A DNA stretch of 16,054 bases from a virus (IMGVR_UViG_2703718862_000008:1-16054); one strand, 5' to 3'. Numbered from the stretch's first letter, positions 2,849 through 11,995 are shown. Notes: generated by a model from the sequence alone, not told the origin. Numbers and translations: made by a program.

Positions 2849-3004
2849 TTACTCCTCAGGTTCGTAGACTGTGAAGACAGCGACCTCCGTCTGGCCGGTT
2901 CGGATTCGTACCTCGCAGAGGTCTTTCCTCGTTACCAGTGCCGTCACTATGACGGTTAAACAGATGACGATAAGGGCGATTAGCATCGCCTTTTGCTGCT
3001 TCAT
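2849..3004 (-). CDS. hokD: Hok-family membrane toxin (51 aa), HokD/RelF-like
   Basis: Product MKQQKAMLIALIVICLTVIVTALVTRKDLCEVRIRTGQTEVAVFTVYEPEE has one TM helix and matches my recollection of HokD almost residue for residue. GGAG lies 9 nt upstream of the ATG at 3002-3004. An in-frame ATG 19 codons upstream (3061) gives the 70-aa track ORF. Confidence 0.8.
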   Translation of the reverse strand: MKQQKAMLIALIVICLTVIVTALVTRKDLCEVRIRTGQTEVAVFTVYEPEE

Positions 3005-3295
3005 AGCCTGCTTCTCCTTGCCTTTCGGCACGTAAGAGGCTAACCTACGTGTGTAGAGCATAGATATGGCATCAGATTAATGTTAAGCGTCTTGCCGGAC
3101 GCGCAATGTTAACTGGGGCTTTTCTCTATCTGCCTTTTGGTATTCATGCCTGAGACAGATAGCCTCAAGCACCCGCAGCAATTCTACTTAACTATCCTTT
3201 CCCCGCAAATCGTTTTTATCCCCAGCGACAAATCGAATACACCACCAGCGCCACCGCCATTGCGATCCCTACCGTTGTGAATGCCTCAGGCCAGG
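3005..3295 (-). promoter_or_regulatory. hok leader/regulatory region (expected promoter, mok-type upstream translation start, possible Sok-type antisense RNA on the + strand)
   Basis: About 290 nt between the upstream gene stop and the hok ATG. Presence of regulatory RNA is inferred from hok/sok biology; I could not place a convincing Sok promoter or terminator by eye. Confidence 0.3.
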
Positions 3296-7634: not shown

Positions 7635-8439
7635 GGCTTACCCCCTTGCTGACTGGTTTTGCCTGTGCCCTGACGTGCTGCACGTGGCGGGCAAATTTCT
7701 GCTCCCACTGAACCTGCGTGAAAACCTTCCCCTCCGCCATCCAGTAATCCCGGAATGCGGCAAGCTCTGCAGGTGTAAATTCCGGCTCAGGCAGAGCCAT
7801 ACCCCACACAGCTGCCCGTTGTCGAAAATCCGGCGACGGCTGCCAGACAGTGGTCATCGAAAATTTCCCGATCGGTTCGCTCAGGCCGTCCAGGTATTCA
7901 GGTTCGGCTGTCTGCAACGGCGCACCATGCGACTCACTGGTAGGAATACTCTCGCGTTCACGCACGTTATGTGTGGGGTTTAATTCTTTTAGATCTGTAT
8001 CTTTATTAGTTGCTTTTGTGTTTGCGTCATGTTCAAACACAACACCAACATTTGTTTGAACACCTGTTAAATCTCTCTCTTGTTTTGTTTGAACATATGC
8101 TTCCTTTCTGCTTCTTCTGGCCTGAACAGATGCTTTTCCGGCGGCTGATTTTTTGGTCAATTTTTCCCTGACTGATGCCAGATCTTCCTCAATCCGAAGA
8201 TGCACCCATTCATCGCCGTTATCGCAAAAAAACTCCCGCAAGGATGGTTCCACATCAGCCCATCGCTCGTTAGTCAGACGGGAAATTTTTGCCAGCCTGT
8301 TTTTAGGTATTGGTTTCCCTGTTTGCCAGTAATTGAACATCAGCAACAAATACGCACCGTGCTCCTCTGCGGACAAATGCATGGTGTCAGCCAGGTAATC
8401 AGCTATGTACAGTTGCATGTATGGTAATGCGGCCATAAT
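7426..8439 (-). CDS. replication initiation O-like protein: YdaU-type N-terminal domain (family I recall as DUF1376) plus DnaT-like C-terminal domain (337 aa)
   Basis: ATG at 8437-8439 with GAGG 5 nt upstream (the track start at 8490 is TTG). N-terminus MAALPYMQLYIADYLADTMHLSAEEHGAYLLLMFNYWQ; C-terminal segment FSMTTVWQPSPDF...YWMAEGKVFTQVQWEQKFARH resembles the DnaT C-terminus from memory. Confidence 0.65.
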   Translation of the reverse strand: MMAALPYMQLYIADYLADTMHLSAEEHGAYLLLMFNYWQTGKPIPKNRLAKISRLTNERWADVEPSLREFFCDNGDEWVHLRIEEDLASVREKLTKKSAAGKASVQARRSRKEAYVQTKQERDLTGVQTNVGVVFEHDANTKATNKDTDLKELNPTHNVRERESIPTSESHGAPLQTAEPEYLDGLSEPIGKFSMTTVWQPSPDFRQRAAVWGMALPEPEFTPAELAAFRDYWMAEGKVFTQVQWEQKFARHVQHVRAQAKPVSKGVSHAASGGTASRAVQEIRASREQWERENGFISNGNGLEAVGAYGGGVFEPLDSEERGRTFEALDCPDWCDD

Positions 8440-9290: not shown

Positions 9291-9343
9291 CCACTTATCA
9301 ATTTTTTCTGTAGGATCGCGGAACTAGTTTACGAGGGGTGGTG

Positions 9344-9736
9344 ATGATCTTTGTAAAACGCCTTCAGCAGGTGTTGCAGGAATTGAATATAAACCAGTCA
9401 GAGCTGGGAAGACGTCTTGGTGTAAAACCCCAATCCGTGCAAGGTTGGTTGAAAGGCGTGATGCCAAGAATGGATAAACTGGAAAAATTAGCAGAGCTCT
9501 CACAACATCCCGTCCATTGGTTCTTTATGGAAGAAGAAACTCTCGGCGATAAAATGGCTGTATCCAGTAATGACAACCAACCGCAACTTACAGAACAACA
9601 ACGAAAAATCATATCGCTTTTAGATGAGTTACCTCAAAGCGACGCAGAGCAGATCATTCGTGATATGGAGCAAAAACGCGATTTCTATAAACGGAAACTT
9701 GAAGAGTTACTGCGGCAGAAAAACAAAACTGCCTGA
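9344..9736 (+). CDS. DicA-like prophage repressor (HTH_XRE N-terminus, helical C-terminal domain, no peptidase domain), 130 aa
   Basis: ATG at 9344 with GAGGGG 5 nt upstream (the track start at 9338 is GTG). HTH QSELGRRLGVKPQSVQGWLKG; C-terminal segment resembles DicA from memory. Confidence 0.7.
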   Translation: MIFVKRLQQVLQELNINQSELGRRLGVKPQSVQGWLKGVMPRMDKLEKLAELSQHPVHWFFMEEETLGDKMAVSSNDNQPQLTEQQRKIISLLDELPQSDAEQIIRDMEQKRDFYKRKLEELLRQKNKTA

Positions 9737-9782: not shown

Positions 9783-10142
9783 TTATAATCCAACCAGGCT
9801 TTCCAGGGGGATACCAAATTGATTATGAAGACGGCGAATCATTGGTAACGTAAGGCTTCTGGTACCATTCAACACCTCATAAACCCGATTTTTTTTCCCA
9901 ATTGCGGGTTCCAAATCTTTCACAGTCAGCCCCTGCTGTTCCATGCGAAATCTTATAGCTTCAATTGGGGATGGTGGCTCAATGGGATAATGTTTTTTTT
10001 CATATTCCTCTATTAGCAAACACATCACCTCAAAAAAATCCCCCTCAGGCGTGTCAATTTCGGGCTCATTGTCGAACATGGGTTCAACAGCACGCAACGC
10101 GGCTTCATAATCTTGCTCTGTACGAATAGGTTTGATGTTCAT
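9783..10142 (-). CDS. higA: HigA-like HTH antitoxin (119 aa)
   Basis: ATG at 10140-10142, 2 nt after the higB stop. C-terminal HTH IGKKNRVYEVLNGTRSLTLPMIRRLHNQFGIP resembles E. coli HigA (YgjM) as recalled. Toxin-first order is typical of higBA. Confidence 0.7.
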   Translation of the reverse strand: MNIKPIRTEQDYEAALRAVEPMFDNEPEIDTPEGDFFEVMCLLIEEYEKKHYPIEPPSPIEAIRFRMEQQGLTVKDLEPAIGKKNRVYEVLNGTRSLTLPMIRRLHNQFGIPLESLVGL

Positions 10143-10144
10143 GC

Positions 10145-10447
10145 TTACTCCAGTTCGATGGTATCAGCATCAATAGCATCGTATTCCTTGTGGTTTCCGA
10201 TGAATTTAACAAATACCCATCCTCGCTGATACGCAATTGCAACAATTAAACGGTAATGATTACCTTTTATGTTGAATACCACGCGCCGGTTTTTCAATAT
10301 ACTGGCCGTTCGGTATTGTACCTTTATGTCTGCTGGGCTTTTCCAGTCAGCTTTTGCCGCCTCATCCACCCATGCCCTTAGCGGTTGTTCTGCATCAGGA
10401 TTCTCCGCCCAAAAATCCCTGAGTGTTTTAACTGAGATAATCTTCAT
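10145..10447 (-). CDS. higB: HigB-family (RelE-fold) mRNA interferase toxin, 100 aa
   Basis: ATG at 10445-10447 (the track ORF extends upstream to 10492). MKIISVKTLRDF...RRVVFNIKGNHYRLIVAIAYQRGWVFVKFIGNHKEYD aligns with K-12 HigB ...HYVFNVGGNELRVVAMVFFESQKCYIREVMTHKEYD from memory. Confidence 0.75.
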   Translation of the reverse strand: MKIISVKTLRDFWAENPDAEQPLRAWVDEAAKADWKSPADIKVQYRTASILKNRRVVFNIKGNHYRLIVAIAYQRGWVFVKFIGNHKEYDAIDADTIELE

Positions 10448-10453
10448 AACTGT

Positions 10454-10482
10454 ATAGTAGTCCCATTTTGGGACTGATGCAA
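10454..10482 (-). promoter_or_regulatory. candidate higBA promoter with operator palindrome in the spacer
   Basis: - strand: -35 TTGCAT (10482-10477), 17-nt spacer containing the palindrome AGTCCCAAAATGGGACT (10475-10459), -10 TACTAT (10459-10454). The ATG is 6 nt downstream, implying a near-leaderless mRNA. Confidence 0.4.
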
Positions 10483-10490
10483 CAGCTCGC

Positions 10491-10544
10491 AATTACAAAT
10501 TTAATAATAAACATGTTGACCAGTTAAATTTTAATTTGTAAATT
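10491..10544 (+). promoter_or_regulatory. OL-like operator and early-left promoter
   Basis: AATTACAAATTTAA (10491-10504) and ATTTGTAA (10534-10541) bracket -35 TTGACC (10516-10521), 17-nt spacer, -10 TAAATT (10539-10544) on the + strand. Confidence 0.45.
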
Positions 10545-10723: not shown

Positions 10724-10876
10724 ATGGATACTATCGAGCTTGGCAACAGCGAATCTCTGGTATGCGGCGTGTTTCCCAACCAGGACGGCACGTTTACCGC
10801 GATGACGTATACCAGAAGCAAAACGTTTAAAACTGAAGCTGGCGCGCGTCGCTGGTTAGCCAGAAACACTTACTGA
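10724..10876 (+). CDS. ydfA: YdfA/YdaF-like small protein (family I recall as DUF1391), 50 aa
   Basis: ATG at 10724 with GAGG upstream. MDTIELGNSESLVCGVFPNQDGTFTAMTYTRSKTFKTEAGARRWLARNTY. First gene of the + strand operon, as ydfA follows dicA in Qin. An alternative start at 10643 gives 77 aa. Confidence 0.6.
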   Translation: MDTIELGNSESLVCGVFPNQDGTFTAMTYTRSKTFKTEAGARRWLARNTY

Positions 10877-10887
10877 TGAGGTTGACG

Positions 10888-11262
10888 ATGGAATTTAAAG
10901 ATTTACCAGTACCATTCCAGGAAATGGCATCGAATGTGGTTCGCTCTCAACTGGCGACTCTTGACCTGAGTACCGTAGAAAAAGAAACAATCGACAATAT
11001 ATCCGGTAACGTACGCCGAGCCTTTATCGGGCTGTACGAAGAGAAGCAGCTCTCTGATAACCAGGATTTACATGAAAAATACTTTCTGGAATTAATGGAC
11101 ATCATTAATAAAGGATTTGGCTTGTTAATGAAAAAGAAAGGGATTCGAATAGCTCCCCTTGAAAATCATTTTACAGCAAGCAGTATTAATTCCTGTGATT
11201 TAAAGCATCACACATCCGATGGGAAAGTTGAATCAAACAACAAAATATCAATTAATCATTAA
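10888..11262 (+). CDS. hypothetical protein (124 aa), AT-rich 3' half
   Basis: ATG at 10888 with GAGGT 5 nt upstream (the track start at 10876 overlaps the upstream stop). No recognisable family. Confidence 0.5.
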   Translation: MEFKDLPVPFQEMASNVVRSQLATLDLSTVEKETIDNISGNVRRAFIGLYEEKQLSDNQDLHEKYFLELMDIINKGFGLLMKKKGIRIAPLENHFTASSINSCDLKHHTSDGKVESNNKISINH

Positions 11263-11566
11263 TTTATTCACAGGTGAGGTAGAGTGCGTGCGCCGGACAC
11301 GGATAAGAATCCGGCACTGACAGTTAACTGAAAAGGATATATCCCTGAAAAGTCAGGGCATAACACGAAAGCGCCCGGCGAAGTTAGTCTCTCTGTATAG
11401 GTCGTCGTTAAATTTTCGTCGACCGTGCGCTTCCGGTTGTGGCACTCCGCGAAATGGCGCGGAGGTAAGTATGGCGGGGTTATTCCTTCCCCGTTGAGGA
11501 CACCGGGTTGTCAGGTTGACCATACGCTTAAGTGACAACCCAGCTGCAACGCCCTCTGTTATCAAT

Positions 11567-11624
11567 TTTCTGGTGACGTTTGGCGGTATCAGTTTTACTC
11601 CGTGACTGCTCTGCCACCCTTTTT
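11567..11624 (+). ncRNA. dicF: DicF small regulatory RNA (about 53 nt mature) plus U-tail
   Basis: tttctggtgacgtttggcggtatcagttttactccgtgactgctctgccaccc followed by ttttt matches the DicF sequence as I remember it. It sits immediately upstream of dicB as in Qin. Confidence 0.8.
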
Positions 11625-11628
11625 AAAG

Positions 11629-11789
11629 TGAATTTTGTGATGCGGTGAATGCGGCTATGCGCACGCGGAACAGTTAAAACCGTAAAGTGGTCTTTTACGG
11701 GGCGTAACGGGCATCCTTCTGTATTCCGGCGTTAATTGTTAACTGGTTAACGTCACCTGGAGGCACCAGGCACCGCATCACAAAATTCA
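11629..11789 (+). repeat. 19-bp perfect inverted repeat (TGAATTTTGTGATGCGGTG at 11629-11647; CACCGCATCACAAAATTCA at 11771-11789) enclosing a 123-nt structured segment; candidate RNase III processing stem of the dicF-dicB transcript
   Basis: The inverted repeat is read directly from the sequence. An inner hairpin CCGTAAA...TTTACGG lies near 11680-11700. Confidence 0.6.
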
Positions 11790-11806
11790 TTGTTGAGGAC
11801 GCGATA

Positions 11807-11995
11807 ATGGAAACGTTATTACCAAACGTTAATACGTCTGAAGGTTGTTTTGATATTGGTGTTCTGCTCAGTAACCGGGAGTTTACGGAAGATGCCATTA
11901 AGATGAGAAAATATGAACCTTATCTTCTCAATGATAATTCCATACTTTCCAGAATTGCCCTTCTTGAACTTGGTATTATCGGAGAACAGCAGTGA
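11807..11995 (+). CDS. dicB: cell-division inhibitor DicB (62 aa)
   Basis: METLLPNVNTSEGCFDIGVLLSN... matches the DicB N-terminus as recalled (MKTLLPNVNTSEGCFEIGV...). GAGG lies 8 nt upstream of the ATG. Confidence 0.8.
   Translation: METLLPNVNTSEGCFDIGVLLSNREFTEDAIKMRKYEPYLLNDNSILSRIALLELGIIGEQQ

Follow-up and report, generated by a model that had tools for sequence, protein, structure and literature searches.

The locus analysed here raises the question of whether an inverted repeat lying between the small RNA DicF and the gene dicB is a true RNA helix and, if so, whether it has a part in the processing of the operon transcript by RNase III. Both DicF and DicB come from prophages and have long been studied for their control of cell division, metabolism and phage resistance in the host, and the repeat would fold the junction between them into a long stem. 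We studied it within a stretch of viral DNA of 16,054 nucleotides (IMGVR_UViG_2703718862_000008:1-16054), hereafter the window. The explanation that we favour, with a probability of roughly 0.8 for the whole of it, is that the region is the dicF–dicB segment from the early operon of a mosaic lambdoid (Qin-like) Escherichia coli prophage; that DicF and dicB are joined by a leader closed by a helix that RNase III cuts; that the core of this leader is akin to the small RNA STnc100; and that a mismatch in the DicF terminator shifts transcripts towards the leader.

In the window, the known small RNA DicF and division inhibitor DicB are present as an ordinary prophage copy, and thus as another dicF–dicB allele and not as a new system. 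The best match among complete genomes covers 86% of the window at 94.6% identity, and from the precursor region to the start of dicB the DNA aligns to the Qin prophage of MG1655 with 93% identity. The order known from K-12 is kept (precursor region, DicF, spacer, dicB and a ydfD-like gene of the DUF1482 family), whereas a higBA module and a 128-aa ORF stand where K-12 has ydfB and ydfC (Table 1). The higBA pair follows the prophage repressor gene and precedes the ydfA-like gene; in the closest genome with an identical DicF, relBE is found at the corresponding place. Farther away, the window carries a sok antitoxin RNA, beside which a hokD-type toxin gene is annotated in a related genome, and a 16-nt inverted repeat (8029–8044 with 8081–8096) with 94% complementarity and arms 36 nt apart.

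Table 1. Features of the window, in the order of their position. Positions are counted from the first letter of the window; helices and hairpins are predicted.
Feature	Position	Strand	Remarks
sok antitoxin RNA	2999–3174	−	Rfam RF01794, 109 bits (gathering score 59)
Cro/CI-type repressor gene	9338–9736		
higBA toxin–antitoxin pair	9783–10492	−	higB: Pfam HigB_toxin, 111.6 bits; partner an HTH antitoxin
DUF1391 (ydfA-like) gene	3' of higBA, 5' of the 128-aa ORF		
128-aa ORF	10876–11262	+	no Pfam match; 3' of the DUF1391 gene, 5' of the DicF precursor region
Non-coding precursor sequence	between the 128-aa ORF and DicF		~300 nt
Upstream helix	~11365–11374 / 11427–11437	+	minimum-free-energy fold pairs ACGAAAGCGC with GCGCUUCCGGU
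DicF small RNA	11568–11619	+	Rfam RF00039, 70.1 bits (gathering score 48), E 5.5e-14
DicF intrinsic terminator, hairpin and U5 tail	11582–11624	+	predicted to be weakened by the C11584·A11616 mismatch
Closing helix, 5' arm	11627–11647	+	19 perfect bases (11629–11647) and 2 more
Structured core inside the helix	11648–11770	+	probably related to STnc100; parts: GGUG-AAU, hairpin P1, variable region, hairpin GCGUUAAUUG...UUAACGUC, terminal hairpin
Insertion hairpin, 13 nt	11680–11700	+	CCGUAAAG-UGGUC-UUUUACGG; in the variable region, window in comparison with K-12
Terminal hairpin	11756–11770	+	CCUGG-AGGCA-CCAGG
Closing helix, 3' arm	11771–11791	+	
dicB Shine–Dalgarno region	11795–11800	+	GAGGA; 5 nt past the helix
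dicB, cell-division inhibitor	11807–11995	+	62 aa; ATG at 11807, stop ends at 11995
DUF1482 (ydfD-like) gene, then exonuclease gene	3' of dicB		

A preliminary description of the window had reported a DicF-like sequence with a U-tail directly upstream of dicB, and its identification holds in every part. The covariance-model search of the window matched the Rfam DicF family over its full length (model positions 1–52 of 52) with a score well over the threshold, TTTTT follows at 11620–11624, and 187 nt separate the last DicF base from the ATG of dicB. The K-12 annotation of DicF begins one base earlier, at 11567, and the 53 bases so defined are identical to K-12 except for a change from G to A at 11616, within the terminator stem; judged by sequence, the single-stranded regions that pair with ftsZ and manX should be unaltered. 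The gene downstream is equally clear. Its product matches the DicB family from end to end (Pfam PF05358, 129.5 bits against a cut-off of 27, residues 1–62 of 62), and an identical protein is annotated as DicB in RefSeq (WP_000449172.1). In comparison with the DicB of K-12, an inhibitor of division that acts in a MinC-dependent manner, it is 61% identical, the first 31 residues matching well and the C-terminal half having diverged.

The base change in the terminator had been noticed as a stem reading GGCGG...CCACC with a C–A mismatch, set against a tentative GCCGCC for K-12. Both sequences were right: cmscan flags the pair C11584·A11616 as non-canonical, and in the alignment MG1655 reads GCCGCC there, giving CCGCC in K-12 and CCACC in the window. 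The predicted folding energy of the terminator hairpin is −12.2 kcal/mol, in comparison with −15.9 kcal/mol for the K-12 sequence, a loss of 3.7 kcal/mol (ViennaRNA), and in the predicted fold of the mismatch allele the preferred register shifts, CCC then separating the stem from the U tract. Given the weaker hairpin and the new register, the mismatch should weaken termination and raise read-through. An exact 66-mer with the A allele was found in 9 of 3,984 complete E. coli genomes that carry DicF, and CCACC is thus a rare but real allele and not a sequencing error. It may serve as a natural variant with which to study how the ratio of 53-nt DicF, 72-nt DicF and DicB depends on the balance between termination and read-through.

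The repeat itself is as it had been described, a perfect match of 19 bp (11629–11647 with 11771–11789) with 100% complementarity and arms 123 nt apart, and two more pairs, G11628·U11790 and A11627–U11791, lengthen it to 21 bp. No other perfect inverted repeat of 14 nt or more, with up to 400 nt between its arms, is present in the 16-kb window; by our own estimate (16054 × 400 / 4^19), a perfect 19-mer at such spacing would be expected by chance about 2e-5 times. RNA folding agrees with a stem: the pairs have predicted probabilities of 0.91–1.0, the duplex alone is predicted at −32 kcal/mol, and the region folds better than all of 200 shuffled sequences (z = −4.6). The predicted duplex, made of 19 Watson–Crick pairs, one G·U and one A–U, is continuous over 21 bp and so attains the length of an RNase III substrate (~20 bp, about two turns). 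A repeat occupies the same place in K-12; there the helix has two G·U pairs, whereas the 19-mer of the window is Watson–Crick throughout.

To see how far the pairing is retained, we used 110 DicF loci from viral contigs. The 19-bp helix was fully paired in 95 of them (24 with Watson–Crick pairs only and 71 with no irregularity other than G·U), 11 (~10%) had a true mismatch, and in the remaining 4 a search that allowed substitutions only did not find the helix. The arms are separated by 110, 119 or 123 nt, the 13-nt insertion accounting for the spacing of 123 nt instead of 110 nt in the window. The usual polymorphisms turn C–G into U–G and G–C into G–U, and K-12 carries both wobbles; as these changes pair in the RNA of the plus strand and mismatch on the other strand, they point to a constraint at the level of RNA. 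Among the E. coli DicF loci alone, variation was too low to reveal covariation, consisting only of wobbles and one U–A, and the outer 12 bp were almost invariant, so that for these pairs covariation has to come from leaders of the Rac and Klebsiella types. A scan of genome contigs with a degenerate DicF pattern gave 11 loci, from Escherichia and Shigella together with chance matches, and no divergent DicF loci among them; the divergent homologues were obtained by blastn against phages and by motif scans of viral contigs.

The same spacer also occurs without dicB. In blastn searches of E. coli genomes and phages, it was found to precede four other genes: kilR in the Rac prophage, kil in Shigella phage POCJ13, terB in phage P7 and, in an Stx1c phage, a small gene recorded as 'cell division protein FtsZ'; Klebsiella phages have it as well. 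The leader of Rac kilR, shared by POCJ13 and phiSTEC1589-Stx1c, has an identical 5' arm and a core that is ~78–83% identical. It repeats the arrangement of the window, with a DicF-like terminator and U tail, the leader and a division-inhibitor gene ~20 nt past the 3' arm, kilR taking the place of dicB. It differs in the 3' arm, where a base is bulged out and one of the pairs is U·G, and in the upstream hairpin, a degenerate DicF-like sequence with a different loop that scores 39.1 bits against the threshold of 48 (loci L134, 2451–2694, and L135). As the same leader precedes both genes, the unrelated inhibitors DicB and KilR share a cassette of an sRNA-like terminator plus leader.

In copies of the Escherichia type, the terminator of DicF or of a DicF-like sequence, ending in its U tail, stands directly before the 5' arm. 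Those of the Klebsiella type have a conserved hairpin, ACCACCGAGCCUGAAGUGGUGAAAAGACAGGC, where E. coli has DicF (locus L261, 1400–1700, from MK416007; also L262, L265, L289, L296 and others), and the leader, at ~1487–1640 of L261 in MK416007, is followed by ORFs of 36–40 aa and then by a Kil gene. Common to the copies with a long stem is a ribosome-binding site and a small gene within ~36–56 nt of the start of the 3' arm, the gene being dicB, kilR, that of a 36- or 40-aa peptide, a 104-aa ORF or terB. Counted from the first base of the 3' arm, the start codon comes at a constant 36 nt in the case of dicB and 41 nt in that of the kilR ATG (29 nt to an upstream in-frame ATG in a looser ORF scan).

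For the comparison of the helix across these types, we aligned 49 leaders that were picked by the motifs of hairpin P1 and of the terminal hairpin only and that had distinct arms. Across the 21-bp helix, 93.5% of the cells pair, whereas partners slid out of register pair at 32–42%, and both sides have changed in 12 of the 21 pairs. Examples of such paired changes are UA (19 leaders) with CG (16), GC (26) with AU (21), AU (27) with GC (17), CG (27) with UA (21) and AU (25) with GC (21). The covariation score, computed for the whole named structure of the helix and three internal hairpins, was 0.364, in comparison with 0.186 for shuffled alignments, none of 500 reaching the observed value, and 0.05–0.09 for slid partners. 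The closing helix of Klebsiella phages has 21–24 bp of different sequence, and MK416007 pairs AACAGACCUUGCAAUGCAGUG with CACUGCAUUGCAAGGUCUGUU in a perfect 21-bp helix of largely different sequence at the same operon position. The proposed stem is thus both conserved and covarying in homologous loci, and the comparison indicates that it is maintained by selection.

Whether the helix has to do with RNase III can be judged from what is known of K-12. According to papers citing Faubladier 1990, processing of the read-through dicBF transcript by RNase III gives a DicF of 72 nt. The 53-nt DicF owes its 5' end to RNase E and its 3' end to Rho-independent termination (PMC10448788, PMC5069750), and as termination supplies the 3' end, it does not need the duplex. 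The dicF of MG1655 is annotated at 1649382–1649434, and 72 nt counted from the annotated start lead to position 353 of the MG1655 locus, equivalent to position 11638 of the window and the tenth base of the 5' arm; the 72-nt end is known from secondary sources and gel sizing and is likely to be off by a few nucleotides. In an RNA-seq comparison of an rnc mutant with the wild type, Table S1 lists a site 'dicF-dicB' at 1649470, marked as known, with 0 reads in the wild type and 26 in the mutant (PMC5371410). The site falls within the loop, 8 nt past the 5' arm, and is a peak in the coverage ratio, based on 26 reads only, and not a mapped cut (PMC5371410).

The preliminary description had seen in the repeat the kind of duplex that RNase III cleaves when DicF is processed from the operon transcript. 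This stands for the 72-nt route, the published end of which falls inside the 5' arm, and fails for the 190-nt precursor and the 53-nt DicF. The operon has a second RNase III site, recently re-examined by experiment; cleavage there, ~137 nt upstream of DicF, generates the 5' end of the 190-nt precursor (PMC10448788). We considered the repeat as this site as well and rejected it, the cut being ~137 nt upstream and in another helix. Counting 190 nt back from the end of the terminator (11619–11624) leads to 11430–11435, in the 3' strand of the upstream helix, and the region of that helix (11365–11437) is nearly identical in MG1655; as a predicted structure, the upstream helix agrees with this published cut. 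The processing by RNase III is, by analogy, a supported reading and essentially one already known for K-12: the dependence on RNase III and the placing of the 72-nt end at the duplex would carry over to the window from the K-12 literature. The repeat is a real, conserved RNA helix at the reported RNase III cut site of the operon transcript, and its comparative proof, drawn from aligned sequences, is the addition to the prior knowledge.

The sequence enclosed by the helix resembles STnc100 (RF02076), a prophage-borne family of gammaproteobacterial sRNAs reported to be related to PasD (bioRxiv 10.64898/2026.05.13.724894). The Rfam search of the whole window at the gathering threshold gave no STnc100, and below it the model matched 11617–11839 with 36.8 bits against a gathering score of 47 (E 2.7e-6 in a search of 801 nt). 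The copies of Rac, Klebsiella phages, POCJ13 and P7 score 28–43 bits, all under 47. Other weak Rfam matches, to ceN53 and mascRNA-menRNA in the window region and to RprA in Rac, were taken as chance. What the spacer and STnc100 have in common are the invariant GGUGAAU and UCACCNGGAGGCACCNGGCACC, the same closing helix, P1, variable hairpins and a terminal hairpin with an AGGCA loop; the closing helix, P1 and the terminal hairpin can be aligned with those of 41 other instances and covary among them, and the motif CACCNGGAGGCACCNGGCACC is present once in the window and in 0 of 200 shuffles. In the P7 element (AF503408, 72453–72568; locus L257, 2001–2116), which scores 43 bits against the threshold of 47, the closing helix has ~9–10 bp; it belongs to the tRNA/ban operon of a P1-like phage and lies just upstream of terB.

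In the STnc100 consensus the closing helix adjoins the invariant GGUG...CACC, and the inverted repeat corresponds to that helix. Our first family alignment (A1/A2) was built from instances preselected for at least seven pairs, and its pair counts are biased accordingly; on these 42 sequences, preselected for pairing, RNAalifold predicted the inner 8 bp unaided and with compensatory changes, for example UA 20, CG 10 and UG 9 at one pair and GC 24, AU 12 and GU 5 at another. With instances anchored by sequence only, at least three further consecutive pairs past GGUG/CACC were present in 85% of 135 unique instances and in 8.7% of slid controls, the means being 6.0 and 0.7 pairs. The annotation of EDL933 has 11 copies of STnc100 and 4 of DicF, none of them adjacent, and it suggests that the copies next to DicF are unannotated because they fall under the threshold. 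From these sequence comparisons, the leader core is probably a diverged relative of STnc100, and the repeat the closing helix of the family, lengthened to that of an RNase III substrate.

This kinship gives rise to the first alternative, that the repeat does no more than hold together the fold of an STnc100-type RNA and has no part in the processing of DicF and dicB. The inner 8–9 bp by the invariant GGUG/CACC are indeed common to the family and covary, and the canonical copies stand alone, without a consistent downstream gene, and are detected as sRNAs (PMC5331693). Yet the length of the closing helix is bimodal, with 6–10 bp in total in typical copies and ~21 bp before dicB, kilR and small early genes, and the copies with 15 or 21 consecutive pairs carry the arm sequences of the DicF locus. 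The length of ~21 bp is kept in Klebsiella phages despite their different sequence; in the Rac type the run is broken by the one-base bulge. A helix with a structural role only would also leave unexplained that the RNase III-dependent 72-nt end, as reported in the citing papers, lies inside the 5' arm and that reads from the loop were seen solely in the rnc mutant (PMC5371410). We therefore regard this alternative as unlikely. The reverse generalization, that every STnc100-like copy is the leader of a gene, was also considered and rejected, the canonical copies having no consistent ORF downstream. Canonical elements of this type occur 2–3 times per IMG/VR phage contig (L146, L153, L196 and others), some within 1 kb of each other, and behave like a repeated intergenic module.

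The second alternative sees the main role of the helix in gating the translation of dicB, whether or not RNase III takes part: the ribosome-binding region would be held against the end of the DicF terminator, and dicB would be translated only once the leader is opened or cut. The 3' arm stops 5 nt before GAGGA, and its distance from the start codon is fixed. The predicted folds carry the helix on into UUGAGG, pairing the Shine–Dalgarno region weakly with the terminator end and U tail of DicF, as CCUU/GAGG or UUUAA/UUGAG, and in the Rac type the U tail can, by prediction, pair with an A run before GGAG. The pairs of these extensions are weak, however, being U·G and A–U, and a gate of this kind is compatible with our explanation and does not exclude cleavage by RNase III; as the main function of the helix we consider it quite improbable. 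That the repeat is instead a feature of the DNA, such as a module boundary, a recombination site or a protein-binding palindrome, is very improbable: its arms do flank a segment variable by indels (spacings of 110, 119 and 123 nt), and the same 5' arm has one partner in the Qin type and another in the Rac type, as in a mosaic region, but the common polymorphisms pair only in plus-strand RNA, the sequence changes across lineages while the pairing is kept (12 of 21 pairs changed on both sides), the internal hairpins covary too, and arms 100–123 nt apart are ill-suited to a protein-binding palindrome.

Under the favoured explanation, an RNA helix cut by RNase III, the operon transcript would follow one of two routes. 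Transcripts that stop at the DicF terminator would be trimmed by RNase E to the 53-nt DicF. Those that read through would carry a structured leader of 180 nt, closed by the duplex of 11627–11647 with 11771–11791; RNase III would cut this 21-bp duplex and give a 3'-extended DicF of ~72 nt and a separate dicB–ydfD message, the same cut releasing a leader core of ~143 nt. The C·A mismatch would direct more transcripts into the second route. If the 5' arm is cut after 11638, the rule of a 2-nt 3' overhang would place the start of the dicB mRNA near 11782 and give it a leader of 26 nt. The cut would presumably affect the expression of dicB, though in a direction that may go either way: provided that the pairing of the Shine–Dalgarno region is real, cleavage could free the ribosome-binding site, and the 5'-monophosphate end left by cleavage could equally speed the decay of the dicB mRNA.

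A wider reading, which we put forward tentatively and consider rather less than an even bet, is that the spacer is an unannotated, diverged module of the STnc100/PasD type that acts as an RNase III-gated leader, its ~21-bp helix standing before small and often toxic early genes. It is meant jointly for lambdoid phages of Escherichia and Klebsiella and covers dicB, kilR, the 36–40-aa peptides and terB in P7. RNase III would then uncouple an upstream sRNA from the downstream gene and free an RNA of ~143 nt, possibly itself a regulator. If true, the STnc100/PasD family would gain a concrete role in processing, and the dicBF operon a third RNA product. For the known system, the helix at the 72-nt end now has comparative support and a link to STnc100/PasD, and the link provides a testable idea of what the copies with a long stem do. 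As far as sequences can tell, the additions made here are the comparison of the helix, the STnc100-like module in Qin, Rac, Stx, P7 and Klebsiella phages, and the rare terminator allele.

In comparison with STnc100 as it is known, the leader differs in several respects. STnc100 is a stand-alone sRNA whose model ends in a 3' hairpin or terminator module of its own (positions ~170–206), which the spacer of the window does not have, the 3' part of the model aligning there to the ribosome-binding site and first codons of dicB. The spacer lies inside an operon, right after the terminator of another sRNA and with a gene at a fixed 36 nt, and its closing helix has 21 bp in place of 6–10. Parallels in function are found in the N leader of lambda and in the early region of T7, where host RNase III cuts a long intramolecular duplex in a polycistronic early transcript. 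Cuts of this kind in phage leaders and between cistrons separate functional units and possibly alter the expression of the cistron downstream. The dicF–dicB junction has no sequence relationship to either, and it differs from them in that the product upstream of the cut is a trans-acting small RNA.
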